Below are positions 3,028 to 19,283 of a DNA stretch of 23,304 bases, piece after piece. A program made the translations under genes and the position numbers. Position 1 is the first letter of the stretch, and the number at the start of each line of letters is the position of its first letter. The DNA lies in NCBI GenBank assembly GCA_043718025.1, contig JAYSWN010000155.1, forward strand, positions 1-23,304, written 5' to 3'. The notes below the pieces were generated by a model, which made no database searches, had not been told where the DNA came from, and was given only the letters and a program-made list of their open reading frames with translations. This DNA comes from Pseudomonadota bacterium. Lineage in GTDB: Bacteria; Bdellovibrionota; FAC87; UBA2466.

Positions 3028-3492
3028 ATGATTCGTATCGCGCCCGCATCCTTAGCCCTGCTTCCAAAAATGATGCCCCTCATCGCCAACTACCAGCGTT
3101 TTTATGGCATGGAGCCCAATCCAGACCGCAATCTCAACTTCTTTTCGGATTTGCTCGAACAGCCAGAACTGGCGGTGCAATTTGTGGCGCTAACCCCTGA
3201 AGATCGGGTGATTGGCTTTGCCACCCTCTATTTTCTTCCCTCATCTTTAAGCGCCCGAACTTACTGCATGCTCAATGACCTTTATACTTTGCCTGAATTC
3301 CGCGGCCAGGGAATCGGCCGGCAACTGATAAAGCGCTGCCAAGAGCTTGCGAAAGAGCGCGGATTATCAACGCTAGAGTGGTTAACGCAAAAGGAGAATC
3401 AGGCCGCTCAGCGACTTTACGATTCTCTTCCCGCCGAAAAGAGCGAATGGCTTACGTACACTCTCAAGTCTGCTCCGGAGGCTACCGCGTGA
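3028..3492 (+). CDS. GNAT family N-acetyltransferase (SSAT/YhbS-like)
   Basis: LNDLYTLPEFRGQGIGRQL acetyl-CoA motif A, and NQAAQRLYD. Confidence 0.92.
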   Translation: MIRIAPASLALLPKMMPLIANYQRFYGMEPNPDRNLNFFSDLLEQPELAVQFVALTPEDRVIGFATLYFLPSSLSARTYCMLNDLYTLPEFRGQGIGRQLIKRCQELAKERGLSTLEWLTQKENQAAQRLYDSLPAEKSEWLTYTLKSAPEATA

Positions 3493-4610
3493 AACAATAC
3501 GATGTGATTGTTGCGGGATTAGGGGCCATGGGTTCGGCTTCGGTTTACTCGTTAGCCAAGCGAGGCCTTTCGGTTCTGGGGTTAGAACAGTTTTCGTTGG
3601 GTCATGATCGGGGAAGTAGCAACGGCCAACGTCGTATCGTTCGCCGCGCGTACTTTGAAAAAAACGATTATATTCCGCTGCTAAATGCCGCCTACCCCTT
3701 GTGGGATGCGTTGGGAGAGCGATCCGGACGCGAGCTGTTTCACCGCGTCGGATTGGTGGTCTTTGGCGAAAAAGGGAGTAGTCGACTTGCCGATCGCATT
3801 CGCACGGCCGGTCAGGCCTTTAAAATTCCACTCGAGTTTTTAACCGCCGATCAGGCTGGAAAACGCTACCCGTTTTCCATCCCCAGTACGTTTGAAGGAA
3901 CTCTAGAACCCGAAGCGGGCTACGCTGACGTTGAGCTTTCACTCGAGGCTTTGCGCCTTTTCGCCGTTGAAGATGGCGCTGAACTACATGGCGAAGAGGG
4001 GTTGCAAGGATGGAGGGCCACCAACGGTGGAGTTGAAGTCACCACAGAAAAAGAGACTTACGAAGCCAAAAGCTTGGTACTTACCACCGGCGGATGGAGC
4101 GCCCAATGGCTAAAGACAGACCGGGTTAGGTTACGCCCGCGGCGGGCTCCTCAAATGTGGTTTGCCGCGTCAAACCGCTACGAAAAAATTCCGTGCTACG
4201 CTTTCGATCTGCCGCAAGACTTTTATTACGGCTTTCCGAGCCAGTCTGAATGGGGCATTAAACTCGCGGCCTATAAACCGGTCGATGACGTTGAAAATCC
4301 AAGCGCGGTCAGTCCGCTTATTCCCGAGTCTTCTAAAAAAGAGATGGCCGCCATTATCGAGCGCTTTCTTCCGGGAGTGTCGCCAATCCACAGTAAAGAG
4401 AAAATGTGCTTTTATACCCTTACGCCGGATGAAGATTTTATTCTGGATCGTCACCCCCAGCACGCCAATGTGGTGGTGGCCACCGGGGGATCGGGGCATG
4501 CCTTCAAATTCACGCCGGTCATCGGCGAGGTGGTAGCCGATCTGATTAAGGCGGGTTCAACCCGCCATTCGATAGAGTTCTTAAGCTTTCGCCGCTTTCG
4601 CGCGGGCTAA
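3489..4610 (+). CDS. solA: N-methyl-L-tryptophan oxidase / monomeric sarcosine oxidase family flavoprotein
   Basis: YDVIVAGLGAMGSA, GHDRGSSNGQRRIVRRAY, CFYTLTPDEDFILDRHP (covalent-FAD Cys) and GHAFKF. The GTG at 3489 overlaps the GNAT stop (GTGA), so the start was moved from 3378. Confidence 0.88.
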   Translation: MKQYDVIVAGLGAMGSASVYSLAKRGLSVLGLEQFSLGHDRGSSNGQRRIVRRAYFEKNDYIPLLNAAYPLWDALGERSGRELFHRVGLVVFGEKGSSRLADRIRTAGQAFKIPLEFLTADQAGKRYPFSIPSTFEGTLEPEAGYADVELSLEALRLFAVEDGAELHGEEGLQGWRATNGGVEVTTEKETYEAKSLVLTTGGWSAQWLKTDRVRLRPRRAPQMWFAASNRYEKIPCYAFDLPQDFYYGFPSQSEWGIKLAAYKPVDDVENPSAVSPLIPESSKKEMAAIIERFLPGVSPIHSKEKMCFYTLTPDEDFILDRHPQHANVVVATGGSGHAFKFTPVIGEVVADLIKAGSTRHSIEFLSFRRFRAG

Positions 4611-6017
4611 CTCAAGCTGCTCAATCAACATGGTTAAGTGCTCTAAACCAGTAAGCCCGTTCGAAATGCCGGCGCGTAAAACTGTTTTTCCGTGGTGAGT
4701 GAGTTGGGTGGTCGTCACCCACGCTTTTCCTGCCGCCGCTACCGCTTTCGCCACTTCACCGGCGCTCGCCCTTTCATCCGAAAAGCAGACTACCGGCAGG
4801 GGGGTTTCGTTTTCTAAATGCCATCCGGCGGCGCTCAGTTTTTTTCGCAGCTCTCGCCCCATTTCAATTTGCTGGCGCAACACTCTCTGGTATCCGGGCA
4901 CACCGGCCGAAGCTAACGACAGAAATAATTTCAAGCCGATGAACCGCCGAGACCACCCCATTGATCGGTGATAAGGCGGGGCCACGTCCTCAGAATCCGT
5001 TGGCATGTAGGGACTAGCGGTAACTCGAAATGCTTTTTCTAAGACCCTATTTCGTCGACAAAAAAACATTCCCGCCGTCATCGGCACGTTAAGCCACTTG
5101 TGGGCGTCCAGGGTAAGTGAATCAGCGGTTTGGCACCCGTCGAAAAGGGCGGCAAATTCCGGTAACAAGCAAGCCGCTCCCCCCCATGCCGCGTCGACGT
5201 GAAACCAGCATTTTTCTTGGGTCGCCAACGAGGCCAGCCCCGACAAGTCATCGATGACCCCCGCGCTGGTGGAGCCCAAGGTTCCAACAATCAAAAGGGG
5301 AATATTACCCTGCAACCGATCTTGAGAAATCTGAACGCGAAGGGCCGCAATGTCGAATTTCAAATCCGGAGTAACCGGCAGCTCTACGATCGCCGCTAAC
5401 CCGAGGCCCACCATTTTGGCGGCTTTCAAAAACGAGTGGTGGGTTTCGCTAGACACATAGATTCGCGGCAGCCCAGAAATCGCCCGTAAGCCGCCCTCTT
5501 CAAATTCAGGGAAACGCTCGGCCAAGGCACAGAGCACGGCGGAGTAATTGGCTTCGGTGCCACCGCTTGTGAAAATGCCTCCCGATTCGGGACCATCGAG
5601 GCGCAAGTGTTTGGCAAAAAACTTAATTAAATGATCTTCAACTACCACTCCGAAAGGGCTGCTTACCGCAGAGGCCAACTGAGAGTTGCGGGCGCTAGCA
5701 AAAAAGTCACCCACCACGCCCATGGCTGAGGGGTTGGGATTAAACACACCAAAATAATTGGGGTCGCTCAAATTGAAATCGAAACCGCAAAGCTGCTCGG
5801 CGGTCCAGCGCAGAAGTGCTTTATCATCGCACTCGGCCGCAAAGGTGAAAGCCGCCAGCCGCCCTTTTACTTCTGTTAACGAAGGAAGGGGTGCGAGCGC
5901 GTCGTTTTGATGCGATTGCGCTACGGTTGAAAAAGTGTCGGCGGCTAAGGCAATTAGCGAAGCCAACTCAGATTGGTTTAGAAACATTGGTTTTGGTGAC
6001 TCGCTCACAATTTGCAC
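4581..6017 (-). CDS. Group II PLP-dependent amino-acid decarboxylase (DDC/GAD/CSAD family)
   Basis: GIFTSGGTEAN, SSETHHS, WFHVDAAWGG and DSLTLDAHKW (PLP lysine). An alternative ATG start lies at 5987. Confidence 0.93.
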   Translation of the reverse strand: MQIVSESPKPMFLNQSELASLIALAADTFSTVAQSHQNDALAPLPSLTEVKGRLAAFTFAAECDDKALLRWTAEQLCGFDFNLSDPNYFGVFNPNPSAMGVVGDFFASARNSQLASAVSSPFGVVVEDHLIKFFAKHLRLDGPESGGIFTSGGTEANYSAVLCALAERFPEFEEGGLRAISGLPRIYVSSETHHSFLKAAKMVGLGLAAIVELPVTPDLKFDIAALRVQISQDRLQGNIPLLIVGTLGSTSAGVIDDLSGLASLATQEKCWFHVDAAWGGAACLLPEFAALFDGCQTADSLTLDAHKWLNVPMTAGMFFCRRNRVLEKAFRVTASPYMPTDSEDVAPPYHRSMGWSRRFIGLKLFLSLASAGVPGYQRVLRQQIEMGRELRKKLSAAGWHLENETPLPVVCFSDERASAGEVAKAVAAAGKAWVTTTQLTHHGKTVLRAGISNGLTGLEHLTMLIEQLELARAKAAKA

Positions 6018-6043: not shown

Positions 6044-6886
6044 ATGAAATTTTTTATTCTTTCGATCTTGGTTGTGGCCCAGTCTGCTTGGGGTTTAGAC
6101 CAAAAAGAGATTCAACAACGGTACGACGACATCGAACTGCGGAGTCCAGAAACTAAAATTGGAATGAGCCGTGACGAGAGGATTGCCCTTCTGAAAGAGG
6201 TAACCGACCATCCGGTGGCCTCGCTTGAAAAGCTAAGCAAATACGACCCACCCCCCGGTGAGATCGGTTTTTGTTACGGAAGGGCCATGACCGCCCACTT
6301 ATTAGCCCGCAAACATGGGGTGGCCCGAAACGGAATTTTAAAACTCTTCGTGGCCGGCGACATGACCCCCGGTCCGAATCGCCGTTGGAGATTTCATGTC
6401 ACCACGCTGGTGCGCGATGAAACCGGTCAAAAATGGTATTCGATTGACCCCGTGGTCGCCAGCCTCGGAAACCCTGATCCGCTTTTGCCCAATCAGTGGT
6501 TGGCTGCCGCCAAGGCGGAGTTTGATCCGACCGCCACGACCAAAAACTATGTGACGAGTACCGAATCAATCATGGTGGACATGCGTGAGATTCCATCCAC
6601 GCTCGCGATGGAAAACAACGAACGGATCATTGAGGTTAAATTCAACCCTGACCGCCCGGGTTTTACGCCTGAGACTGAGGTTGGGGAACTTGGTTCGTAT
6701 CCCGTTTATCGCTTGGATGCCGACGCCCAAGCCAAATATTTTATTAAACGCCATGAGCTCACCGAGGCCGATGATTTTAATTTTTTGGGCATCTCGGTGA
6801 AAATTTTGACGCCTACCCAGGTGATTTCGCGCGTATATGATTACCGCGCCTATTTCAGCGATCTAATGGAATCTATGGGCCAATAA
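6044..6886 (+). CDS. Secreted protein-glutamine glutaminase-like (Cys-His-Asp) enzyme
   Basis: Signal peptide, then GFCYGRA (C77), WRFHVTTLV (H118) and SIDPV (D135), paralleling the GCYARA/WxxHVA/DP motifs of protein glutaminases. Confidence 0.7.
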   Translation: MKFFILSILVVAQSAWGLDQKEIQQRYDDIELRSPETKIGMSRDERIALLKEVTDHPVASLEKLSKYDPPPGEIGFCYGRAMTAHLLARKHGVARNGILKLFVAGDMTPGPNRRWRFHVTTLVRDETGQKWYSIDPVVASLGNPDPLLPNQWLAAAKAEFDPTATTKNYVTSTESIMVDMREIPSTLAMENNERIIEVKFNPDRPGFTPETEVGELGSYPVYRLDADAQAKYFIKRHELTEADDFNFLGISVKILTPTQVISRVYDYRAYFSDLMESMGQ

Positions 6887-6911: not shown

Positions 6912-8165
6912 TTATTCTTTGACCACAAACAATTCCCCGCGATCTTCCATCGCGCGGATGGTTTGGTAATCTTCTTCGATTGCTATTTTACTTTCGTGCA
7001 CCAGAGTGAGAAATCCGGGCGCCGTAAAATAATCGATCGTCTTTTTCAACTGAGATCCGGGCTTCACCCGCAGTCGCATCTGAAAGAAAGACTTCAAATT
7101 TCTAATGTTCTCTTCGCCGGGAATAGCCGTTACCTCTCCCGCCTGATACGAAGTCAAATATACGGTATACGCCTGTTTCTTTAATCGGTAAGGCCGCAGG
7201 GTCTTGCGCGCGAAGGCTGGTTCGTTGGCGTAAATGTCGGCGGTTAGATCGAGCGGACCAAAACCAACGCACGCCTGATTCACCGCGGGAACCGAAAGGC
7301 CATCCAGTCTCGTTCCCACTTCGACCAAAGCCGGGCCATCGGGGCCCATCATCACTTCGGTATGAGCGGGTCCATACTTAACCTCCAGGGCCGTCAGAAC
7401 CGCGCTTACGTAATCGCGCATCTGCCCCTCTTCATCGCCGTCAAAGGCAAGCAGTTCGTTGCGGTCGTATACGCAGTCATGACCATTGATAGAACGCTTT
7501 TTGTACTTCCAGATCTCGGTAAAATGATGGGCGCCATCAAAACTCACGGTATTTAAAAAGTGTTCGGTCCCCTCTAAAAACTCTTGAATAAGGGCTTCAT
7601 TGTTAGTGAGCCCCAGCATGTTGGTTTTCCCCACAATCGCATTCACGGCGCGCTCAACCTGCTCGGGGTTGGTGCAAACGGCCACGTTGTCGGTACCGGC
7701 GCTGTGGAGTGGCTTCACCACCACCTTTCTAAGATTCTCCTTTTTAAACCACGCCACCACTTCAGCGGGGGTTACCCCTTTAAACTGCTTGGCGGCGCGC
7801 AATCTGGCGTTTCGAACGGTCTCCACCATTTCAAATTTGTTTCGGCGGGCCGAACTCTTTCGCAAACCGTTGGGTTTAATATTTAACCCGGCGCTAAGGC
7901 TATCGGCCAACTCCACTCCAGTTTCCGTTCCCGGCACCACTCCCAAGGGATTGAACTTACGAAGTTGGGCGATTAAACCTTCTATATTTCCATCGAACGC
8001 AAAATTCTGGTCGTAGTCCTCGGGACGAAAGGTGGGGGCCAACACTTTCCAAATTTCTTTGGTGCTTTGCACGTGGGCGACGAGAAAACCCCGGCCGCGA
8101 AATTCGGGCGCCAGCAAATTGCCTGCTGAGTAACCATCTACAATCACTATCCAACGATCGCTCAT
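6912..8165 (-). CDS. ATP-grasp amino-acid ligase, DdaF/NikS-like
   Basis: IVIVDGYSAG...HVQST, ARRNKFEM, VVVKPLHSAGTDNV, QEFLEGTE, GPAHTEV and LVEVGTRL match the ATP-grasp fold and, from memory, the DdaF/NikS subgroup. ATGA overlap with the MATE gene and a GGGGAG RBS. Confidence 0.88.
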   Translation of the reverse strand: MSDRWIVIVDGYSAGNLLAPEFRGRGFLVAHVQSTKEIWKVLAPTFRPEDYDQNFAFDGNIEGLIAQLRKFNPLGVVPGTETGVELADSLSAGLNIKPNGLRKSSARRNKFEMVETVRNARLRAAKQFKGVTPAEVVAWFKKENLRKVVVKPLHSAGTDNVAVCTNPEQVERAVNAIVGKTNMLGLTNNEALIQEFLEGTEHFLNTVSFDGAHHFTEIWKYKKRSINGHDCVYDRNELLAFDGDEEGQMRDYVSAVLTALEVKYGPAHTEVMMGPDGPALVEVGTRLDGLSVPAVNQACVGFGPLDLTADIYANEPAFARKTLRPYRLKKQAYTVYLTSYQAGEVTAIPGEENIRNLKSFFQMRLRVKPGSQLKKTIDYFTAPGFLTLVHESKIAIEEDYQTIRAMEDRGELFVVKE

Positions 8166-9493
8166 AAACTCCCCTTCACTTCAATGCTAAACACTCTCCG
8201 CCATCGGTAGAGCAGAAGCAGGCTAGAGGTCAAAAGGCCAAAGATAAGCCCCACCCAAAGACCAACCAGACCGTATTCGAATACAAAACCAAACAGCAAG
8301 GCCGACGGCAAACCCACCATCCACAATCCCAGAACATTAGAGGACAAAGCGGCTTTAGAGTCACCAAAACCGCGCAGGGTTCCAATTACCGCCATTTGGT
8401 AGCCATCAAACAACTGCAGCACCGCTACCAAGATCATAATGGCTGAGCCCAACTCAATGACCGCAGGATCGACGGTAAACGATTGCATCAGGAAATTTCG
8501 CTTCGCAAACAGAATCAGACCCACCGCAACCATAATTGCCGTGGTCACTCGAATGGCAATTTTACCCACCTGAAAGGCCCGATCCCGATCACCTTGCCCC
8601 AAGGCGTTCGCCACCAGCAAACAACCCGCCGTGCCCATCCCCATTGGAATCATGTAAAAAAATCCGCCGAGATTCAGGCTGATGGTATGCGCCGCCATTG
8701 CGGCGGGCCCCAGCTTGGCCACCAGTATTCCGACCACCGAAAAAGCGAGCGAGCGCGCCAACATTTGCGAGCCAGTGGGAATTCCCAACCGACACAGCGC
8801 TTTTAGCGCCATCACATCCAGTCTGATAATCCGCGGGCTTTTGGTTATATACCCAATATAGAGAATCAACGCCGACGCCATCCCGCCTCGAGTCAAGAGG
8901 GTAGCTAGCCCGCTGCCGGCCACGCCGAGCGCAGGCGCGCCCCATCTGCCTTCAATGAAAGCGGCGTTAAACAGAAAATTGGCGCCGTTGCCCAACACGA
9001 TGGTTGCGGTCGAAAATCGAAGCCGGTGGTGCGACGCCAAATACTGCCGCGCCGTAAAGAACATAAACATGGGGAAAAAGCTTAAGCCCAGGGGCAGCAA
9101 AAATGAGCAAGTGCTCGCAACAAGTTCGGTACTAATTCCAAACCAGGGAAGTAAACCCCTTAGCACCAACGTCGATAAAAAGGCTCCCCCCCCTAAGCCA
9201 ATTGCTAAGTAGCTCGCTTGCCAATACCAAAACCAAGATTTGGCGGCGTCATTTTCTCCCACGGCTCGCGCCGAGTAATACTCAAGCGCAGTGAGCGTGC
9301 CGGTGCAAAAGAGGTGGATCGAAATCGCCAGCGTACTGCCGAGCCCCACGCCCGCCACCGCTAAGGGGCCAAGTCTGGCGACAAACAGGGTATCGACCAG
9401 CACCATCGACATCATTCCGCCCTGAATCAAAACTACCGGAAGGGCCAATCTCAAAAATTGTTTGGTCAGGGTCGGGGTGGCAAAACTTCGCAC
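8162..9493 (-). CDS. MATE family efflux transporter (NorM-like)
   Basis: LALPVVL, VDTLFVARLG, LGVAGSGLAT, QLFDGYQ...GTLRGFGD and GLVGLWVG, with about 12 hydrophobic segments. Confidence 0.95.
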   Translation of the reverse strand: MRSFATPTLTKQFLRLALPVVLIQGGMMSMVLVDTLFVARLGPLAVAGVGLGSTLAISIHLFCTGTLTALEYYSARAVGENDAAKSWFWYWQASYLAIGLGGGAFLSTLVLRGLLPWFGISTELVASTCSFLLPLGLSFFPMFMFFTARQYLASHHRLRFSTATIVLGNGANFLFNAAFIEGRWGAPALGVAGSGLATLLTRGGMASALILYIGYITKSPRIIRLDVMALKALCRLGIPTGSQMLARSLAFSVVGILVAKLGPAAMAAHTISLNLGGFFYMIPMGMGTAGCLLVANALGQGDRDRAFQVGKIAIRVTTAIMVAVGLILFAKRNFLMQSFTVDPAVIELGSAIMILVAVLQLFDGYQMAVIGTLRGFGDSKAALSSNVLGLWMVGLPSALLFGFVFEYGLVGLWVGLIFGLLTSSLLLLYRWRRVFSIEVKGSL

Positions 9494-10074
9494 TCAAATC
9501 CTTTCCAGTTGGTCTTGGCGAGTGAGTATAGAAACATATCGAGGTAGCGCGATTCGAAGGGGTCGAAAGAAAGCTCAGGAATCAATCCAACTTTCAAAAA
9601 CCCAATTTTTTCTACCAACCGCAAAGACCCTAAATTTTTGGGATCGATATTGCCTTCCACGCTATGCAGACCGAGCTCAGCAAAGCCATAGTGAATCACC
9701 GCCGACAGTGCTTGGGTCATCCACCCTTTTTGCCAAAATCGTCTCGCCAGTTTGGCGCCCAGTTCGCCGCGACGGCGAACCCGTACGAATCGCCAAAAAC
9801 CTACATCGCCGCACAAAACGCTGGGGTCGTGTTTTTCGGTGATGGCCCAGCGAATGAGTTCGCCCTTTTGCATCTGATCGGCAACCAGATCGATCAGCTT
9901 TTGGGTATCCCCTCGCGATTGGTGCGCAGGGGTGCCCCAGCCTCTCATCACCTCAGGGTCAGAGTAGAGCGCAAACAGAGCTTCGAGATCGCTTGCGACA
10001 ATGGGCCGTAACAACAGATCGGCAGTAGCGATTGGCTGCGGCGAGAAAGAACTCGGTACGTTAGCGTTTGTCAT
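9466..10074 (-). CDS. RimJ/RimL-type GNAT N-acyltransferase
   Basis: TADLLLRP, FWQKGWMTQAL and NLGSLRLVEKIGF. It overlaps the MATE start by 28 nt. Confidence 0.92.
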   Translation of the reverse strand: MTNANVPSSFSPQPIATADLLLRPIVASDLEALFALYSDPEVMRGWGTPAHQSRGDTQKLIDLVADQMQKGELIRWAITEKHDPSVLCGDVGFWRFVRVRRRGELGAKLARRFWQKGWMTQALSAVIHYGFAELGLHSVEGNIDPKNLGSLRLVEKIGFLKVGLIPELSFDPFESRYLDMFLYSLAKTNWKGFECEVLPPRP

Positions 10075-10158: not shown

Positions 10159-12195
10159 ATGTTTGTTAAGCGGTTTGATTCGTCAAAAGCCGAAGAGGCT
10201 TACGGAATTCTTTGCCAACGCATCTATCCCCTAGCCAATGGCGAAAGTAGTCTAGAGCTAGCGCCACCGCCTTTTGGCAGCACCTATTGCGAAGTTGAAC
10301 CGCTTGGGGCCACCTCACCGCACAATCACTACGACGGCGAAACTTTTATTATCTTGAAGGGGCAGGGGCGCATGCAGATCGGCGACGAAGCCCAAGACGT
10401 GAGCCCGGGCGACGTTGTGCTGATTCCCCCGTTTTCGCACCACACGCTTACCAATATTTCGAAAATCGATCGGCTTCAGTTCTTGTCGGTTTATTGGGAG
10501 GCTCGCGGCCGCGCGTTTGATGACACTCCCCCAAAAAGGATTTTTCTGGCTTCGGCGCCGCCCACCCCCAACGGTGAGCTGCATCTTGGCCACCTTTCGG
10601 GACCCTACGTAGTCGCCGACATTCTTCGCCGGTTTTATCGGTTGCAAGGGGCGGAGGTTCACTACGTTTGCGGTAGCGACGATAACCAAAGCTTCGTTCC
10701 CGCAAAGGGGGTGGCCCTAGGCCTTACCGCCGAAGGCGTAATCGACAAATTTGTCCCGCAAATCACCGCGGTTCAAGAAAAGATTGGGGCCAAGGCCGAT
10801 TACTTTCTACGCCCGCACGGCAACGCCGCGTACGTATCTTTCGTGCAAGATTTTTTTCTGCAACTGGTTAACAAGGGGCACCTCGTTCTTAAAGACAGCG
10901 AAGTGCTTTACTGTGAAAGCTGCCGAGCTTACTTGCATGAAGCGTATGTAAAAGGCGGCTGCCCCTCGTGCCAGCTACCAACCAGTGGCAACGGTTGTGA
11001 AGCCTGTGGCCTTACCAATGACTGCGTCGATCTCACCGATCCACAATGCAAGCAATGCAATTCAGTGCCGGTGCGTAAACGCATGGCTAAGTACTATTTC
11101 GATTTGGCGCCGTGGAAAGAAAAACTAAGCGCGTTTCTAAACAAGGCAACCGTGCCCGTGCCCTTCCGTCCCTTCGCCAACACCGTGCTTGAAAAAGGGA
11201 TGCGTGAAATTTCGGGAACTCACCCCTGCCCGTGGGGGATTGCACTACCACCCTCGCTCGTCACCGATCAGACTCAGGGGCAGACGATCTATGCGTGGTT
11301 AGAAATGGCCGCAGGTTACGTTTACATGGCGAAAGCACTTGGCAAAGATGGCGACTACACCACCCTTTTGGCTAGTGCAGAGTCGCGCTTCATACAGTGC
11401 TTCGGTTTTGACAACACTTACTTCTATCTCGCATTAGTGCCTGCGCTGTTGATGGCCTACGATGAAAAAATTACGCCGCCCGATTCTTTCGTGATCAATT
11501 TCTTTTATTTGCTCGACGGCAAAAAGTTTTCGACCAGCCGTAACCACGCGGTGTGGGGAAAAGACTTTTTAGATAAAGTTCACCCCGACGTGGCCCGCTA
11601 CTACCTCGCCGCAACGCGGGCCGAGACGTCAGAAAGCAATTTTTCACTTAGCGAATGCCAGGCGCGGGTGGCCGACCAGCTCGAAGGGCAATGGAATCAG
11701 CTCGCCCTCAAACTTGAAAGTTTGTGTACGGCAAACGGCAATCAGATGCCGGGGCGCGAAAGGTCTCTACGGCCTGATCAACAAGCCTTTTTACGTCGTT
11801 TGGAAGATGCGTACTCTCAAGCCACGTACTGTTATCGCGCCGAGAGCTTTTCGATGAACCGTTTAGCCACTTTGCTCGACACCTTGGTTTGCGACGTACA
11901 GGCCAGGGCAACTGGCGCTTTGGCGCTTGCTGAAAACCAGTCACTACTGCCCCTTTTTAAAACGGAATCGGCGCTGGTGTTTACCGCCGCCAAGTATTTG
12001 GGCCTGATCGCCAGTCCCCTTATGCCGCAAATTGGCGGCGAGCTTTATGCCAAGTTTGGGGGGGCAACGGCCGTTACGTGGGGAACTCACATTGAAATTA
12101 TTTTGGAAGGAAGGCCGTTTTTAGAAAATCGCCTGTGGTCCGACCGTTACGTAAAATCATTAGAAGGCATCCAAGCGCTCATCAACGTAGATTAG
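10159..12195 (+). CDS. Cupin / methionyl-tRNA synthetase-like fusion, putative hydrazine (N-N bond) synthetase of the Spb40/Tri28/PyrN type
   Basis: N-terminal cupin with H55-x-H57-x3-E61...H95, followed by a class I aaRS domain (PPTPNGELHLGH, four CxxC zinc-knuckle motifs, KFSTSR in place of KMSKS). The Met-pocket residues are altered, and the gene sits beside a Lys N-hydroxylase and an FAD oxidase. Confidence 0.9.
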   Translation: MFVKRFDSSKAEEAYGILCQRIYPLANGESSLELAPPPFGSTYCEVEPLGATSPHNHYDGETFIILKGQGRMQIGDEAQDVSPGDVVLIPPFSHHTLTNISKIDRLQFLSVYWEARGRAFDDTPPKRIFLASAPPTPNGELHLGHLSGPYVVADILRRFYRLQGAEVHYVCGSDDNQSFVPAKGVALGLTAEGVIDKFVPQITAVQEKIGAKADYFLRPHGNAAYVSFVQDFFLQLVNKGHLVLKDSEVLYCESCRAYLHEAYVKGGCPSCQLPTSGNGCEACGLTNDCVDLTDPQCKQCNSVPVRKRMAKYYFDLAPWKEKLSAFLNKATVPVPFRPFANTVLEKGMREISGTHPCPWGIALPPSLVTDQTQGQTIYAWLEMAAGYVYMAKALGKDGDYTTLLASAESRFIQCFGFDNTYFYLALVPALLMAYDEKITPPDSFVINFFYLLDGKKFSTSRNHAVWGKDFLDKVHPDVARYYLAATRAETSESNFSLSECQARVADQLEGQWNQLALKLESLCTANGNQMPGRERSLRPDQQAFLRRLEDAYSQATYCYRAESFSMNRLATLLDTLVCDVQARATGALALAENQSLLPLFKTESALVFTAAKYLGLIASPLMPQIGGELYAKFGGATAVTWGTHIEIILEGRPFLENRLWSDRYVKSLEGIQALINVD

Positions 12196-12203
12196 GAACC
12201 AAA

Positions 12204-13340
12204 ATGTCAAAAAGTTACGATGTCATTGTGGTAGGAGGGGGCGCCGTCGGCGCTTCGGCCCTCTTTCGCCTGGCCGAGAGAGGCATCACCAATACGCTTC
12301 TCATCGAAGGAAAAAAAAACCTCGGCCGTGGTTCGACCGGATCTTGGGGTTCGCTCATTCGCGTTTATCATCGTAATCCGCGCACTACCGCCCTGGCGGC
12401 AGAAAGCGTGCCCTTTTACCTCGATTTCAAACGACACGTAGGGCGCGATGCCGGCTACGTGAGAACCGGGTCGCTCTATTTTTTAAAGCGGCACTGCCTT
12501 GAGTTGATCAAAAATCAAATGGTGGCCTTGAACAAAGGAACTTTGAAGCTCGAGATCATTGAGGCGGCCGAAGGTAAAAGACGCTACCCAAACTTTCACT
12601 GGTGGGAAGATGACTTTGCGATTTATGAATCGCACTCAGGCTACGCGTGCCCCTGGGCCACTACTGACGCCTGGGTCGATTCAGCGCGCGATGCCGGGGC
12701 CGAGCTAGAGACCGACAACGCCGTGGTGGATTTTTTAACCGAGAATAACCGCGTCACCGGTGTGGTCACGCGCCGAGGCGATGAGTTTCTGAGCGATAAA
12801 GTGGTACTGGCCACCGGAGCGTGGTCTCCCGCGCTATGCCTAAAGCTTGGCATTGAGCTGCCGATCGTCAGTCGGGTGATTCAAGTAAATCACTTTCACC
12901 GCCAAGTGCGTGAAAACGCCGACCCTTTTTTTATTGATTTGGAAGCCCTAACTTTCGGCCGACCCGCGCCCGATGGATCGTTCGTCGGAGGTTGCATGAA
13001 AGAAGAGTCGGAATCGGCCGACACTCTTGTGCAGTCAATTAGTCTGCGCGAGGCCCACGAGGCCAAGCGCCGTTTGTCGACGAGAGTGAATTGGATTAAA
13101 AACGCCAGCATTTTGGGCGGCGTGCGGGCGGTAGAGGCATACACCGGAGACCTCAATGGCCATCTCGAGTATTCGGCTAAATACGAAAACTTGCTAATCG
13201 CGGTGGGTTGGAGCTGCACCGGGTTTACCCTAGCGCCGGTTATCGGCCAGCGCATTGCCGAGTCCATTGAACAAAAAGGGGTCACCAAAAACCTCTGGAA
13301 CTTAAAGCCACCTGGGCTTTTGGTAGACGCTCATGTTTAG
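12204..13340 (+). CDS. FAD-dependent oxidoreductase, DAO/glycine oxidase family (Spb39/Tri27-like role)
   Basis: YDVIVVGGGAVGAS, GRGSTGSWGSLIR, VVLATGAWS and GWSCTGFTLAPVIG. The start was reassigned to the ATG at 12204, which has an AGGA RBS and lies 8 nt after the upstream stop. Confidence 0.9.
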   Translation: MSKSYDVIVVGGGAVGASALFRLAERGITNTLLIEGKKNLGRGSTGSWGSLIRVYHRNPRTTALAAESVPFYLDFKRHVGRDAGYVRTGSLYFLKRHCLELIKNQMVALNKGTLKLEIIEAAEGKRRYPNFHWWEDDFAIYESHSGYACPWATTDAWVDSARDAGAELETDNAVVDFLTENNRVTGVVTRRGDEFLSDKVVLATGAWSPALCLKLGIELPIVSRVIQVNHFHRQVRENADPFFIDLEALTFGRPAPDGSFVGGCMKEESESADTLVQSISLREAHEAKRRLSTRVNWIKNASILGGVRAVEAYTGDLNGHLEYSAKYENLLIAVGWSCTGFTLAPVIGQRIAESIEQKGVTKNLWNLKPPGLLVDAHV

Positions 13341-14619
13341 AAAGCGGCTTTGTATCGTGGGCGCCGGACCAAAGGGATTGGCCATCGCCACCAAGGCGGC
13401 GGCTCTCAGGAGGTTGGGCTTTCAGACGCCCGAACTCTGTTTAATCGATCGCCGAGGGGTAGCGTCGCATTGGGTAGCAGATTCGGGCCTGACCAACGGA
13501 CTGCAGAGTTTGGGTACCTCTCCCGAAAAAGATGTCGGATTTCCGTACGCGTCGTTTTGCTGGGGCAGCGTGAACAACCCCAAAGTGAATCACTTGATGC
13601 AGGAGTACTCGTGGACGTCGTTTCTTATCGACGCCCATTGTTACTCCGACTGGATCGATCGGGGAAAACCTGCCCCTAGTCATCGCCGCTGGGCAGAGTA
13701 TTTGAAGTGGGCTTGGCAAAAAGTGAAGGACGAGACCGAGCTTGTGATCGGACGTTTGGACTCCGCATCTTGCGATGGTGATAAGTGGATTCTGTCGGTT
13801 GATCAGAAAGCGGGTGCACTCAAAACCATTACCGCCAATGGCCTCGTGCTCACTGGCCCCGGCCGGCCGCGCATGCCGGCAGATCTGCCCAATGACGATC
13901 GCATTCTTTCGACCGATCGCTTTTGGCGGGGGTGGGAACAGTACGCGAACCATCGGGGGGCCCGTATCGCCGTGGTCGGAACCGGCGAAACCGCCGCCTC
14001 GATCGCGGTAACCCTGGGGGCCGCCCGGCACGTAGCGGCAGTAGATATCATCAGCCCGCTGGCGATGAATTATTCGCGGGGAGAAAGTTACGTGGAAAAC
14101 CACGTCTACACCGACCCATTCCAGGCAAACTGGTTTGGCCTTACGGTAGAAAACCGCAAAGACTTTATTCAACGAACCGATCGCGGCGTTTTTTCGGTGG
14201 TGGTAAAAAAACAGCTCGATGAAATGGATTGCCTGGAGATCATTCCAGGTCGGTTAACTAGAGTAGAGGTTGATTCACTAAACCAGCTCATGGCCACCGT
14301 GCAGTACGCCGAAACCAGCGAAAAGCGCGAATACCATTACGTGATTTTTGCCACTGGCTTTGAACCGTGGGCGTGGTTCCGCGATATCATGACGCCAGAA
14401 ACCCGCGCCCACTTTCAATTAGGGCTCGGAGTGAACGACCTTGCCGATGGCACGGTAGAGCTAAATATCGAAGAGTCGCTCACTTTAGGAAAAGTGCGGC
14501 CGGCGCTGCATCTGCCGATGATGGCCGCAGTGAATCAAGGGCCCGGCTACCCCAACTTAAGCTGCCTGGGGCGGTTATCGGATCAGATTTTATCGGCCTA
14601 CGTGCCGCTCGAAACTTAA
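13333..14619 (+). CDS. Flavin-dependent L-lysine N6-monooxygenase, MbtG/NbtG subfamily
   Basis: VGAGPKGLAIATKA, LGTSPEKDVGFPY, AVVGTGETAAS, RTDRGVFS, FATGF and QGPGYPNLSCLGRLSD are all characteristic MbtG/NbtG segments. It overlaps the oxidase by 8 nt. Confidence 0.93.
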   Translation: MFRKRLCIVGAGPKGLAIATKAAALRRLGFQTPELCLIDRRGVASHWVADSGLTNGLQSLGTSPEKDVGFPYASFCWGSVNNPKVNHLMQEYSWTSFLIDAHCYSDWIDRGKPAPSHRRWAEYLKWAWQKVKDETELVIGRLDSASCDGDKWILSVDQKAGALKTITANGLVLTGPGRPRMPADLPNDDRILSTDRFWRGWEQYANHRGARIAVVGTGETAASIAVTLGAARHVAAVDIISPLAMNYSRGESYVENHVYTDPFQANWFGLTVENRKDFIQRTDRGVFSVVVKKQLDEMDCLEIIPGRLTRVEVDSLNQLMATVQYAETSEKREYHYVIFATGFEPWAWFRDIMTPETRAHFQLGLGVNDLADGTVELNIEESLTLGKVRPALHLPMMAAVNQGPGYPNLSCLGRLSDQILSAYVPLET

Positions 14620-14675: not shown

Positions 14676-15905
14676 ATGCCTGCGCCGAAACTAAAACAGA
14701 TCACCCAAGACTTTCTCTCCATTGTTCCTCATTTTGCGGACTTTTCGAGCACGGCGAACCTTGCTGATTACGCCGATGTTCCCAAAGACTGGTTTCTCTT
14801 TGTCAGCGATATCCGCGGAAGCACCAAGGCCACCGAAGCGGGTCGGTACAAAGACGTAAACGTAGTAGGAGCCTCGGCGGTGATGGCGGTGCTGAATAAA
14901 ATCAAACCGCACGAAATTTTTTATGTGTTCGGGGGAGACGGCGCCACCTTTTTGAGCCCGCCTGAACTCGCCGACGAGATCACTGCCGCGCTGCTCGAAG
15001 CGCGCGTAATGGCAAAGCGAGAATTTGATTTTGAACTGCGAGTTGGAAAAGTTCCGCTGCTAAATTTGTATGCCGCCGACTGCGAAGTGAAGGTGGCTCG
15101 TTTTAGGGTGTCTCGCCACATCACTCAAGCCGCTTTGGGCGGCGACGGAATAGCGCAGGCGGAGAAGTGGGTAAAGAATCCCTCTGCGGGTGAAACGTAC
15201 GAAGTGATGGAGACCGCCGGCACCCTTAATGCGAACACCGAGGGGCTCGAGTGCCGATGGAACCCAATAAAAAGTAAACGCGGCAAGATGACTTCGATTA
15301 TTGTACAGAGCCTAAATCTAGATCCAAAACGGGCGGCGGCCGACTATCGAGAAGTGCTTACTTTGGTAGATAGCCTCTTCCTTACCAACGAACCGCCGGT
15401 AATTTCATCTGACGGGCTTACCCTCGCCACTAACCCTAAAGCCTACGCCGCCGAATCTAGCTCGCGGCAGAATGGGCTCTCTTTCTGGTCCAGATTAACC
15501 TATGGACTTAAGGCCTATTCGTTAACCGTCGCCTGCTTGTTTCTCTGGAACAGTTTCTGGAAAAGGGCAGGTGAGAAATATAAAAATGAGCTGGTCGTAA
15601 ACACCGATTACCGAAAGTTTGACGGCGTTTTGCGCATGGTGCTCGACCTTTCCGTGAGTCAGATCAAACTTCTTGAAGCCCTTTTAGAAAAAATGGCCGC
15701 GGATGACGAAATTGCCTACGGCCTGCACTTCTCGGATTCGGCGCTCATGACCTGCCTCATCTTCGACCGGGCCCAAGGCAACCATTTGCATTTCGTCGAC
15801 GGAAACGATGGTGGCTACTCCGCCGCGGCTAAAACATTGAAAAAAAGTTTGAGTGCCCGCAATGACCGCGTCTGCTCGGTTAAACCCAAACGGGTTCACG
15901 CCTAA
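14676..15905 (+). CDS. DUF3095 family protein (nucleotide-cyclase-like fold)
   Basis: SDIRGSTKATEAGRYKDVNVVGAS, VFGGDGATF, GLECRWNPI, DYRKFDGVLRM and HFVDGNDGGYSAAA. Confidence 0.88.
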   Translation: MPAPKLKQITQDFLSIVPHFADFSSTANLADYADVPKDWFLFVSDIRGSTKATEAGRYKDVNVVGASAVMAVLNKIKPHEIFYVFGGDGATFLSPPELADEITAALLEARVMAKREFDFELRVGKVPLLNLYAADCEVKVARFRVSRHITQAALGGDGIAQAEKWVKNPSAGETYEVMETAGTLNANTEGLECRWNPIKSKRGKMTSIIVQSLNLDPKRAAADYREVLTLVDSLFLTNEPPVISSDGLTLATNPKAYAAESSSRQNGLSFWSRLTYGLKAYSLTVACLFLWNSFWKRAGEKYKNELVVNTDYRKFDGVLRMVLDLSVSQIKLLEALLEKMAADDEIAYGLHFSDSALMTCLIFDRAQGNHLHFVDGNDGGYSAAAKTLKKSLSARNDRVCSVKPKRVHA

Positions 15906-16397: not shown

Positions 16398-17966
16398 TCA
16401 CTCGTCGGCTCCAAGGTACAGGCGGAGCGACTGTTTTTCTTTTTCCGATAACATGCGTTCAGGGGGCATCCGAACCTTGGGGTCGGAGCTATTCACCCGA
16501 TTCATCACTTTGGCGACGAAAGAAGAGGTAAACTCTCCGGGCTTTTCCAATGGCAACGGGGGCGCTGAGCCATTCGAAGGCGAGTGACAGCTAAGGCACA
16601 TTGGCACCGGGTTGATTAGCAATGCCGTCGAAGCGATAGGCTCAACTGGCCCATTCCTCTCATCTTCTTTTTTCAAAACATCGCAGATCGTTGGTTCGCT
16701 CTTTTCGAGTGGAGACGCTGACTCAGGATCCTCATCGTGAAATGGCTGACTCTCTTTAACCTGTAAATTGAGCTCTCCGGTGTGCTCCTCGGCCACGGCG
16801 GCGGGTAAGTTCGGATTCTGCTTTCTCAACTCGGTGAAAAGGATTTGGGCTAAAGGTGCAGATAAATAATTAGAGCCAACATAATAGCTCCAGTTTTTTG
16901 GATCCCGGCTAAGCACAAAGTCGGTGTGTTCAATGCCGAAGGAGGCGGCTAACCACCCCGTTTCTAAATCACTCCCTACGTACCCAACTCGCGCCCAAGT
17001 TGCCAGGTTTCCATGCGGCAATTTTTTTTGAAAAAGAGTCCGGCTGAGAGCCAAACGATCGGCAAAGAGCGCCTTGTATGGATAGCTGCACCGGGCGATC
17101 AGTCCCGCGGTAAGCGCAGGTCCAAAGACCCTAAAGAGGGCCCGATCGGCCACGATCTGATTGGCGAGATGCCTTGCCTGCAACGGAGCAAGTAGTGCAG
17201 TGAAACGCAAGTTGGGTCTAAATTGATAGCCCGATCGCGTTACCGTGTTGTAGGGGCTAACTGGAGAGCCCTCGGGGAATTGTAGATAGCGGTAGCGCGA
17301 ATGCTTCGGTACCAGCTGCTTAAAACGGCGAAACGCATCGAGCTCCGCTAATCGAACGGCGATAAAGCCTGCGGTTTTATCGAGCCCGGCGTACTTCTCG
17401 GCGCGAAAATCAATGAGGGCGTCGTCATCGTGACCATAGGCGCCGGGCCATTGGTCGTATGGCTCCCAGATTGGCCGCAGTGGCTGGTAATGACACCGAG
17501 CACACTTGGCGGGATTGGCCTCAGAAAGTGCGGGTCGCGACTCGCCTGAAAAAATGATTTCACGAAACTGCCACGATTGTGGTGCAGTTGATTCGAAGGC
17601 GATGATCTCAACCGCGTTGTAGCCAGCCTGTTTTGGATGACCATTGAAGGTGTAGATAAATTTTGCATCGGGCCCAAAAACGATGGCCCGTGGAAACGTT
17701 TCTGACCCCCGCTGCAAGCTCAAGCTATGATTCATCAGCGTGAAACCCGACAGATGAAGTGGGTGATTTTGCTTTACCCACTCCAAAAAAGTTTCCACGC
17801 TGTTAAACGCAGGGACCTTAGCTTCAATCGCTTTTTCAAGGTCAGAAAGAGTGAGCGTCGAAGGTAGGGTAGAGAGTTTGTCGTAGTTTAAATCACCGCC
17901 GGCGCCAAACGCCTCAACAACGTAATGGAGAACCACGATCCCCACGATCAGTATAAAACCCCTCAT
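16398..17966 (-). CDS. Exported c-type cytochrome with two CxxCH motifs
   Basis: CARCH and CLSCH, a C-terminal RMPP axial-Met motif and an N-terminal signal/anchor from the ATG at 17966 (GGGGGG RBS). The ORF-track start at 18068 would leave only 3 nt to the divergent gene. Confidence 0.75.
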   Translation of the reverse strand: MRGFILIVGIVVLHYVVEAFGAGGDLNYDKLSTLPSTLTLSDLEKAIEAKVPAFNSVETFLEWVKQNHPLHLSGFTLMNHSLSLQRGSETFPRAIVFGPDAKFIYTFNGHPKQAGYNAVEIIAFESTAPQSWQFREIIFSGESRPALSEANPAKCARCHYQPLRPIWEPYDQWPGAYGHDDDALIDFRAEKYAGLDKTAGFIAVRLAELDAFRRFKQLVPKHSRYRYLQFPEGSPVSPYNTVTRSGYQFRPNLRFTALLAPLQARHLANQIVADRALFRVFGPALTAGLIARCSYPYKALFADRLALSRTLFQKKLPHGNLATWARVGYVGSDLETGWLAASFGIEHTDFVLSRDPKNWSYYVGSNYLSAPLAQILFTELRKQNPNLPAAVAEEHTGELNLQVKESQPFHDEDPESASPLEKSEPTICDVLKKEDERNGPVEPIASTALLINPVPMCLSCHSPSNGSAPPLPLEKPGEFTSSFVAKVMNRVNSSDPKVRMPPERMLSEKEKQSLRLYLGADE

Positions 17967-18071
17967 CGCGCCCCCCAGCACCCTGTGCTTAATGCGTAGC
18001 GTAATCGACGAATTTAACAAAGGGATAAATAAGCGCTTGCCCCCTTGGCTGGTAACGAATGAAATCACCCG

Positions 18072-19283
18072 ATGAATAAAAAAAGCAGCAAGGGTTTGGC
18101 CGTCGTGGCCCCGGCCCTCTTATTGCTGGTTTACATGGCGGCCTACTTTGGTTTTGCTAGGCTTGGGTTTGCGATTGAAAAAGACGAACTCCATTTTTGG
18201 CCAACGGTCCTGTTTTTTAGCCATCACTTACTTCCGACCGCTGAGCAACTTCGCAGCTACAACGACCTCAACACCCCGGTTCCGTTTTTAATTTTCGGAG
18301 CAATTGAGTCTTGGTTTCATCAGGGCCTTTGGCTAGCGCGCCTTAGCAATTTGCTGATGAGCCTAACTTGCGCGGCGATAATATTATTGCCGACCAAAAA
18401 TGCGACTCGTGATTCGGCGCTGGCAACGCTGGGACTACTTTGCTTTCCCTATTTTGTTGGCGTCAGCACCCATGTTTACACTGACACCATCGCCGCGGCT
18501 TTCACGCTGGGAGGAGTGGCCCTGTTCATGAACGGCCATCGCTTTGTCTCTCTACTCTTTTTCGTAGCGGCCGTAAGCAGCCGTCAATATGCGGTCATCT
18601 TTCCGGCCGCGTTACTTTTATTTTTACTACGTACGTCGTGGGCTAAGCGACAATCTCCGGATTGGATTTCGGTGGGTTGCCTTACGGCTTCGCTTTTTTC
18701 GTTAGTAAGTTGGTTTATCTTTTGGGGCGGGCCGGCCAATGCAGTGGCACTCAATTCTCAGGTGGTGGCCACGACCCAATGGCTGAGTTTCCTTCCCGAA
18801 AACGTGGGCTACTTTCTTGCGTGCGTGGCGACGTACTATTGCCTTCCTGAATTTCTTTTTTTTAGCGCAAGTAGAGAGCTATTTAAGCAGCGCTTCGCTC
18901 AACGCAAAAAAGTGGCCGTCATTGTTGTAATGATAGTCAGTCTCTTTGCCCTTTTTCCCCCGCTGGGAAATCACTATCCCTACCCCATCGAAGAGATGGG
19001 TTTTCTCGATAAGGGACTGCGCCTTGGGTTTAATGATTTTTGGAGAGTGGTAGCACTCTGTGGGCTTGCCATTTTCGCCGTCATTCGCTTTGCAGAAGAT
19101 AGTTTGCCGGCCTATTTCGTGGTGTTAAACGCCGTTTTAATGGCCAAAGCGCACATCGCTTGGGATAAATACGTTTTTAGTCTGCTTCTCGTGCTTTGGT
19201 GGTTCCGTAGTGATTCCAATAGATTAAATAGCCAAAAAGGGATTGCTTCGGGATCCGTTGCCATTCGCCCTGGTACCAAGTAA
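18072..19283 (+). CDS. Polytopic membrane protein, likely a GT-C fold glycosyltransferase
   Basis: A DE motif after TM1 (KDELHFW), YTD, SRQY and WDKY segments, and about 10-11 transmembrane helices. Confidence 0.65.
   Translation: MNKKSSKGLAVVAPALLLLVYMAAYFGFARLGFAIEKDELHFWPTVLFFSHHLLPTAEQLRSYNDLNTPVPFLIFGAIESWFHQGLWLARLSNLLMSLTCAAIILLPTKNATRDSALATLGLLCFPYFVGVSTHVYTDTIAAAFTLGGVALFMNGHRFVSLLFFVAAVSSRQYAVIFPAALLLFLLRTSWAKRQSPDWISVGCLTASLFSLVSWFIFWGGPANAVALNSQVVATTQWLSFLPENVGYFLACVATYYCLPEFLFFSASRELFKQRFAQRKKVAVIVVMIVSLFALFPPLGNHYPYPIEEMGFLDKGLRLGFNDFWRVVALCGLAIFAVIRFAEDSLPAYFVVLNAVLMAKAHIAWDKYVFSLLLVLWWFRSDSNRLNSQKGIASGSVAIRPGTK

Follow-up and report, generated by a model that had tools for sequence, protein, structure and literature searches.

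Hydrazine synthetases that combine a cupin with a domain resembling methionyl-tRNA synthetase (MetRS) have been known since 2018, and the family is estimated to comprise more than 1,200 members (PMC13149037). It includes Spb40, Tri28, AzsN and PyrN, the last of which is the hydrazine synthetase of pyrazomycin biosynthesis, whose C-terminal domain (PyrN-C) is available as PDB entries 9VQ4 and 9L8V (bioRxiv 10.1101/2025.08.22.671884). The glycine-using enzymes AzsN, Spb40 and Tri28 belong to a three-enzyme cassette of hydrazine synthetase, N-hydroxylase and oxidase. A hydrazine cassette is also part of the fuscazine cluster (FuzD/E/F/G with FuzC and FuzH, which are enzymes of the ATP-grasp type), in which cupin and MetRS-like part are each a protein of their own, Arg or hydroxy-Arg serves as substrate, and the two ligases, which use a hydrazine nucleophile to form hydrazide peptides, are accompanied by a tRNA deacylase and an alpha-ketoglutarate dioxygenase (PMC13149037). 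Here we describe a gene of this family at positions 10159..12195 of a 23,304-nucleotide stretch of DNA (the window; contig JAYSWN010000155.1 of GenBank assembly GCA_043718025.1, forward strand) from a bacterium deposited as Pseudomonadota and placed by GTDB in the Bdellovibrionota (FAC87; UBA2466).

The encoded didomain protein is a member of the known cupin/MetRS-like hydrazine synthetase family and not a new type of enzyme, and we predict with good confidence that it joins a small amino acid, most likely glycine, to N6-hydroxylysine by an N-N bond. As the enzyme type is established and structurally characterised, the gene adds nothing to enzymology. Its value is that of a pointer to a compact cluster in which no nonribosomal peptide synthetase (NRPS) or carrier-protein genes were seen and which is conserved in uncultured Bdellovibrionota and one planctomycete.

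A cupin/MetRS-like hydrazine synthetase

The synthetase gene and its domains are as follows.

10159..12195, + strand: hydrazine synthetase gene, a cupin and MetRS-like fusion of 678 aa (P0001), recognised from its open frame, Pfam, and PDB sequence and fold matches
10288..10494, + strand: Cupin_2 core, aa 44-112, bearing H55, H57, E61 and H95 (Pfam E 1.4e-12)
10546..11703, + strand: MetRS-like Rossmann core (tRNA-synt_1g), aa 130-515 (Pfam E 4.5e-75)
11704..12192, + strand: C-terminal alpha-helix bundle, aa 516-678, without an OB fold (PyrN-C alignment and AlphaFold model)

A single open frame runs from the ATG at 10159 to the TAG at 12193-12195. Its translation contains the cupin string H55-N-H57-Y-D-G-E61 followed by H94-H95 and, in the Rossmann core, A133-PPTPNG (PPTPNG from 134), HLGH (142-145), W380-LEMAAGY, G416-FDNTYFY and K456-FSTS (KFSTS, 456-460), together with two Cys4 zinc knuckles (C252/255/297/300 and C268/271/280/283). 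A preliminary description of this DNA, made from the letters alone, had quoted these synthetase motifs and an intact H-x-H-x3-E...H cupin pattern, and every string is found in the translation; the E-values of the domain matches mark true homology and no chance resemblance. The cupin tetrad H55/H57/E61/H95 has a spacing of 2-4-34, equal to that of D63/H65/E69/H103 in RHS1, which form its zinc site (PMC8664883). E61 aligns with E56 of PyrN, and the PyrN E56A variant is inactive (PMC8664883), which agrees with the earlier view that the catalytic pattern of the cupin is intact. Among the nearest homologues (117 of 120 listed matches, with P0069, a partial sequence of 515 aa, P0072 of 1154 aa and P0074 of 813 aa left out for length), the HHEH tetrad and KFSTS are each present in 116 of 117. 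In the long homologue P0072 a hydrazine synthetase is fused to a lysine/ornithine N-monooxygenase domain (PF13434).

The AlphaFold model of the protein (mean pLDDT 95.4, pTM 0.92) is almost wholly helical over residues 497-677, and the alignment with PyrN-C extends to residue 637. An OB-type tRNA-binding domain at the C-terminus had been reported missing from the sequence; the Pfam search gave no match to PF01588, and the helical C-terminus leaves no room for such a domain.

Both sequence and fold place the protein closer to PyrN than to any MetRS. Its top PDB sequence matches are the PyrN-C entries 9VQ4 (1.3e-65) and 9L8V (4.4e-65), followed by the archaeal MetRS of P. abyssi (1.6e-59) and that of E. 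coli (~7e-31). In a Foldseek search with the model, PyrN-C ranks first (TM 0.94 on the target, root-mean-square deviation 2.4 A), although with only 28% identity in that alignment, whereas the best MetRS structures reach 0.77-0.84. PyrN (C-domain entries 9L8V, 9VQ4, 9VQJ and 9VR2) shares the didomain layout, HLGH and KFST[GS] motifs, and two zinc knuckles. With canonical MetRS, represented by E. coli MetG and by P0122 of the same genome, the protein has in common the class I Rossmann fold, a helix bundle and a CP domain bearing zinc knuckles; it differs in its replaced signature motifs, its added N-terminal cupin and its scores, which lie below the NCBIfam MetRS cut-offs (269.9 against 587 for NF001100; 229.3 against 336.35 for TIGR00398). 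KFSTS stands in place of KMSKS, and M383, N419 and Y423 occupy methionine-pocket positions.

The housekeeping enzyme P0122 (514 aa, contig C64) is the second PF09334 locus of the genome. It scores 656.8 against an equivalog cut-off of 598 and carries the canonical motifs HIGH, WFDALTNY, GKDIIKFH and KIGKS. Its named relatives, at ~60% identity, are labelled Deltaproteobacteria, and it is 66% identical to the MetRS of G010, a genome from the family of the source organism. A third PF09334 match, on contig C72, was considered as a second MetRS-like gene and rejected, being the N-terminus of a leucyl-tRNA synthetase. A separate metG is thus present, so the synthetase gene is not the only MetRS of its genome; together with the sub-cut-off scores and the closeness to PyrN-C, this bears out the earlier statement that the protein is not a Met-tRNA ligase. 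Its portrayal as an unusual MetRS paralog with a specially remodelled pocket is not supported: its motifs agree with the consensus of the 117 nearest homologues (PPTPNG, W.EMA, FGFDN.FFY and KFSTSR), in a family already on record.

Amino-acid pocket and predicted substrate

Pocket residues were mapped from the sequence alignment with PyrN-C and the PyrN numbering of bioRxiv 10.1101/2025.08.22.671884. The mapping recovers the published PyrN numbers for HLGH (147-150), KFSTG (458-462) and all eight zinc cysteines, and is trusted for this reason. The PyrN residues T141, N143, Q182, D420, N421 and E286, which contact the adenylate backbone or the hydroxylamine, correspond to T136, N138, Q177, D418, N419 and E281 in the synthetase. 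In PyrN glutamate is held by R390 and R425, in whose place the synthetase has G386 and Y423.

The positions relevant to the published specificity codes are 133, 134, 174, 177, 380, 383, 386, 419 and 423. Eight-residue codes have been given as SFVQALNR for PyrN (Glu), TPDQWMNH for AzsN (Gly) and SADQWYGH for ThzN (Thr) (PMC12376268). Read over columns 133, 134, 174, 177, 380, 383, 419 and 423, 19 of the 117 homologues give exactly TPDQWMNH, which supports the choice of columns. The code of the synthetase is APDQWMNY, found in 62 of the 117 sequences. It is not identical to TPDQWMNH but agrees with it at six of eight positions, and the function may nonetheless be shared. The core PDQWMN of the glycine-using enzymes is retained, including the pocket-filling residues W380, M383 and N419; A133 replaces T, and Y423 replaces H. 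When the seven-residue code of the preprint is used instead, the synthetase reads APDWMGY (23 of 117), and a large sister group with Arg at 386 reads APDWMRY (42 of 117).

Because of the six shared code positions and the absence of the Glu-binding arginines of PyrN, glycine is the likeliest substrate, a prediction from sequence to which we give somewhat better than even confidence. The preliminary description had proposed a small substrate, Gly or Ala. W380, M383 and the six code positions, all as in glycine-type AzsN, speak for this part of its claim; the exact code is linked to no assayed enzyme in the literature searched. APDQWMNY covers a large group for which we found no published substrate assignment. 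The substrate of one member would annotate many genes whose present label is either 'methionine-tRNA ligase' or else 'class I tRNA ligase family protein'.

Other pocket types were observed among the homologues. In the APDWMRY group, mainly from Thermoanaerobaculia, PyrN R390 is matched by an Arg (loci L027, L030-L032, L035-L039, L044-L045, L047-L048, L050, L052-L053 and L057), and the substrate of these enzymes may be an acidic amino acid. In L030, the one such locus scanned with Pfam, the synthetase lies beside a classical PF13434 hydroxylase, and no oxidase like the DAO-family neighbour of the present gene was detected. On the megaplasmid of Ralstonia pseudosolanacearum (L106, 5995-7485) a standalone MetRS-like protein has PPTPNG, DFSTS and the code TPDQWGCH; its gene adjoins those for a serine acetyltransferase and an AMP-binding enzyme, and neither a cupin nor a hydroxylase was found among the nine open reading frames scanned there.

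Organisation of the gene cluster

Two genes follow the synthetase on the same strand.

12205..13340, + strand: FAD amine oxidase of the sarcosine-oxidase (DAO) family (Pfam, PDB), with its likely ATG at 12205, 9 nt past the synthetase stop
13333..14619, + strand: NbtG-like flavin N-monooxygenase, a predicted lysine N6-hydroxylase, matching 4D7E (L-Lys monooxygenase) at 6.1e-90

The N-terminus of the oxidase reads as a GxGxxG FAD-binding motif, and among solved structures the enzyme is nearest to sarcosine oxidases; its predicted role is cleavage of the hydrazine intermediate. It overlaps the hydroxylase gene by 8 nt (13333-13340), and the three genes form one operon. The only other PDB match of the hydroxylase is KtzI (5.7e-6), and its match to PF13434 is at E 1.3e-15, compared with ~1e-100 for the classical-type neighbours of synthetases in other lineages.

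The window thus contains a synthetase, an N-hydroxylase and an oxidase, as do the cassettes of AzsN, Spb40 and Tri28, with some differences. The hydroxylase is NbtG-like, whereas those beside other hydrazine synthetases are of the classical PF13434 type, and the C-terminal carrier domain reported for AzsN/AzaE is absent. The adjacent sarcosine-oxidase-like flavoenzyme may be the counterpart of the Spb39-type oxidase, which releases hydrazinoacetate. Further genes lie upstream of and beyond this operon.

9466..10074, - strand: GNAT acyltransferase of 202 aa (Pfam), divergent from the synthetase gene across an 84-bp spacer
8162..9493, - strand: MATE efflux transporter (Pfam, NCBIfam)
6912..8165, - strand: ATP-grasp L-amino-acid ligase (424.6 bits with NF005543, whose cut-off is 302; PDB match to an L-amino acid ligase, 7.5e-66)
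6044..6886, + strand: 280-aa protein of no clear family, with a weak Gln_deamidase_2 match (Pfam)
4581..6017, - strand: group II pyridoxal phosphate (PLP)-dependent decarboxylase (Pfam, NCBIfam, PDB)
3489..4610, + strand: second FAD amine oxidase, resembling SolA / N-methyltryptophan oxidase (353.5 bits with NF008425, whose cut-off is 257)
3028..3492, + strand: second GNAT acetyltransferase, 154 aa (Pfam), with relatives in L021, L026 and L033
15911..16414, - strand: SnoaL-like protein (Pfam), with counterparts in the L019, L020, L033 and L051 clusters

The match of the ATP-grasp ligase to a DdaF-like model lies below the cut-off of that model. The likely GTG start of the SolA-like oxidase, at 3489, overlaps the stop of the upstream GNAT gene (GTGA, 3489-3492); this overlap and that of the oxidase and hydroxylase genes suggest translational coupling. 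A Pfam scan of 22 open reading frames in the window showed neither an NRPS nor an adenylase or carrier protein. Like the fuscazine cluster, the window combines a hydrazine cassette with NRPS-independent ATP-grasp ligation. It differs in having one ligase together with a decarboxylase, two GNATs, a second oxidase and a MATE pump, and neither a tRNA deacylase nor an alpha-ketoglutarate dioxygenase was found by Pfam among the same 22 frames.

Proposed pathway and alternatives

Lysine is proposed as the partner because the hydroxylase matches NbtG at 6.1e-90; NbtG itself has been used in E. coli to supply the substrate of a hydrazine synthetase (bioRxiv 10.1101/2025.08.22.671884). The hydroxylase would convert lysine to N6-hydroxy-L-lysine, and the MetRS-like domain would adenylate the amino acid and pass it on to the N6-hydroxyl to form an O-aminoacyl-hydroxylamine ester. 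In the zinc cupin, whose key residue would be E61, this ester would then rearrange to a hydrazine with formation of the N-N bond, and the adjacent oxidase would cut a C-N bond, likely on the lysine side, freeing a hydrazino acid (hydrazinoacetate). These four steps follow the published mechanism of the family. The later ones are conjecture on two precedents, namely a diazo pathway in which a GNAT acylates hydrazinoacetate (PMC13061610) and the ligases of fuscazine biosynthesis. More speculatively, the GNAT might acylate the free hydrazine nitrogen, the ATP-grasp ligase might form an amide or hydrazide, the decarboxylase, second oxidase and SnoaL-like protein might tailor the product, and the MATE pump might export it.

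Several points weigh against this scheme and against glycine as its amino acid. No assayed enzyme with the exact code APDQWMNY was found in the literature searched, which did not cover the published table of codes for 401 enzymes. Differences at a few code positions can broaden specificity, with Ser/Gly and Ala/Gly enzymes reported (bioRxiv 10.1101/2025.08.22.671884), and the residue at position 423, Tyr here, His in AzsN and Arg in PyrN, makes a side-chain contact in the last of these. One hydroxylamine contact of PyrN, E284, corresponds to G279 in the synthetase. Furthermore, some hydrazine synthetases accept hydroxylated diamines (PMC12376268), and the clustered PLP decarboxylase could supply a diamine. 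Lastly, the regiochemistry of the oxidase varies in the family, an Apy10-type cut on the other side having been described.

The alternative that survives best, though it is rather unlikely, keeps the family and mechanism and changes only the activated amino acid to alanine, serine or another small residue, so that the building block would be a 2-hydrazino acid other than hydrazinoacetate. The code departs from the only Gly code that we found documented at two positions, with A instead of T at 133 and Y instead of H at 423, and enzymes using Ala, Ser, Ser/Gly or Ala/Gly exist. The Ralstonia homologue with TPDQWGCH serves as a lead only and is not equated with the published Ala/Gly enzyme. Against this alternative, W380, M383 and N419, which fill the side-chain space, are the same as in the Gly-type code; G386 is as in the TPDQWMNH group; and the Thr-using ThzN needs a change of N to G at the equivalent of 419.

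Unlikely to a greater degree is a different hydroxylamine partner, in which a hydroxylated diamine or a shorter diamino acid, provided through the clustered PLP decarboxylase, would replace N6-hydroxylysine. The decarboxylase is conserved in the cluster and resembles 2,4-diaminobutyrate (DABA), Asp and aromatic decarboxylases, and hydrazine synthetases using derivatives of DABA, 1,3-diaminopropane, putrescine or ornithine have been reported (PMC12376268). The hydroxylase, however, matches the lysine enzyme NbtG far better than KtzI, and the PyrN contacts to the alpha-carboxyl and alpha-amine of hydroxylysine (D420 and N421) are kept, both of which argue for N6-hydroxylysine.

We consider it similarly improbable that the oxidase cuts on the amino-acid side like Apy10, in which case N6-amino-lysine would be retained, glycine would be a mere nitrogen donor and the decarboxylase would act on that product. 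Both regiochemistries are known in the family and the decarboxylase is conserved, but the combination of GNAT and ligase has its precedent with free hydrazino acids.

Finally, a true second methionyl-tRNA synthetase, kept as a resistance or back-up copy and carrying a cupin, is highly improbable and was rejected: only the general MetRS fold favours it, against scores below all NCBIfam MetRS cut-offs, the change of KMSKS to KFSTS, a Met pocket filled by M383 and Y423, the greater nearness of PyrN-C in sequence and fold, a canonical metG elsewhere in the genome and an N-hydroxylase neighbouring the synthetase.

Conservation and distribution of the cluster

Orthologues of the synthetase occur in all three other genomes of the genus (63-69% identity), and 10 of 24 genomes of the same family have a cupin/MetRS-like match. 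The nearest named synthetases are from Bdellovibrio and Bdellovibrionales metagenome-assembled genomes (MAGs). Loci were compared in seven cases from relatives (L019-L025) and 80 from named public genomes; the latter were found with the patterns PPTPNG.., KFSTSR.. and FG[FIY]DN.., which favour codes like that of the present synthetase, so that code counts among them are biased.

A DAO-family oxidase lies beside the synthetase in 14 related loci, comprising all seven from relatives and 7 of the 80 public ones (L026, L033, L041, L042, L051, L058 and L061). Synthetase, oxidase, hydroxylase, ATP-grasp ligase and decarboxylase are found as a set in 7 of the 87 loci (L019, L021, L022, L023, L026, L033 and L051), the genomes concerned being G002, G019, G006, G024, an uncultured Bdellovibrio sp., an unclassified MAG and Candidatus Uabimicrobium amorphum. 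These five genes are mostly accompanied by a GNAT, a SolA-like oxidase and a MATE pump, and the GNAT at 9466..10074 is conserved in L019, L020, L023, L026, L033, L042 and L051. The locus of G001 lies on a contig that begins within the MATE gene, and L042, from a Bdellovibrionales MAG, is limited to GNAT, ligase, synthetase and oxidase. In G016, G021 and an Elusimicrobia MAG (L040) the cassette occurs without the ligase, L040 also being without a detectable oxidase. As an observation apart from the present locus, in which none was seen, the ATP-grasp ligase of two other genera of the family is associated with an AMP-binding adenylating enzyme, to which it is fused in L022 (1000-3774, - strand, one frame of 924 aa) and which it adjoins in L021 (2432-5117, - strand).

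The full set, as we define it, comprises nine genes: hydrazine synthetase, oxidase, NbtG-like hydroxylase, GNAT, ATP-grasp ligase, PLP decarboxylase, second amine oxidase, SnoaL-like protein and MATE pump. The same nine are found on the chromosome of the planctomycete Candidatus Uabimicrobium amorphum (L051, 9001-19516). In a FastTree tree of 88 synthetases, for which the program warns of long branches, the ten synthetases of ligase-type clusters fall on one side of a branch (support 90) and are nested in a group of 14 rows (support 95) that is mostly from Bdellovibrionota, with the Uabimicrobium sequence among them (99). The nine-gene set in a planctomycete and the branching of its synthetase among those of Bdellovibrionota suggest horizontal transfer between the two, subject to the caveat of long branches.

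In our full-text search of the literature on Bdellovibrio or Uabimicrobium and hydrazines or N-N bonds, no paper was found to describe this cluster, and none of the literature found on hydrazinoacetic acid, ATP-grasp, hydrazide and N6-hydroxylysine has this gene set. We tentatively propose, as a possibility held with well under even confidence, that the conserved nine-gene set makes an undescribed N-N-bonded small molecule of hydrazide, hydrazone or diazo type in an NRPS-independent manner, that it has moved between Bdellovibrionota and the prey-engulfing Candidatus Uabimicrobium amorphum, and that its product is a chemical tool of cell-feeding bacteria.

Other genes in the window

For the 280-aa protein at 6044..6886 the PDB search gave no relative, and among the compared loci relatives were found in L019 and L026 only. 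Promoter-like sites (8 against 8.2 expected) and terminator-like sites (18 against 23.7) are not above chance in the window. A DUF3095 protein (14676-15905, + strand), a 556-aa protein whose end weakly matches cytochrome c (16398-18068, - strand) and a 403-aa membrane protein (18072-19283, + strand) keep their order within the genus (L019 and L020); the clusters of other genera were found to lack them, so that they probably flank the cluster and are not part of it. At the other end of the window a type I cysteine dioxygenase (160-804, + strand), relatives of which were not found in the 80 public loci, is encoded ~4 kb from the PLP decarboxylase (4581-6017, - strand). The solved relatives of this decarboxylase include cysteine sulfinate decarboxylases (~1e-30), and the two enzymes could form a hypotaurine-type branch.

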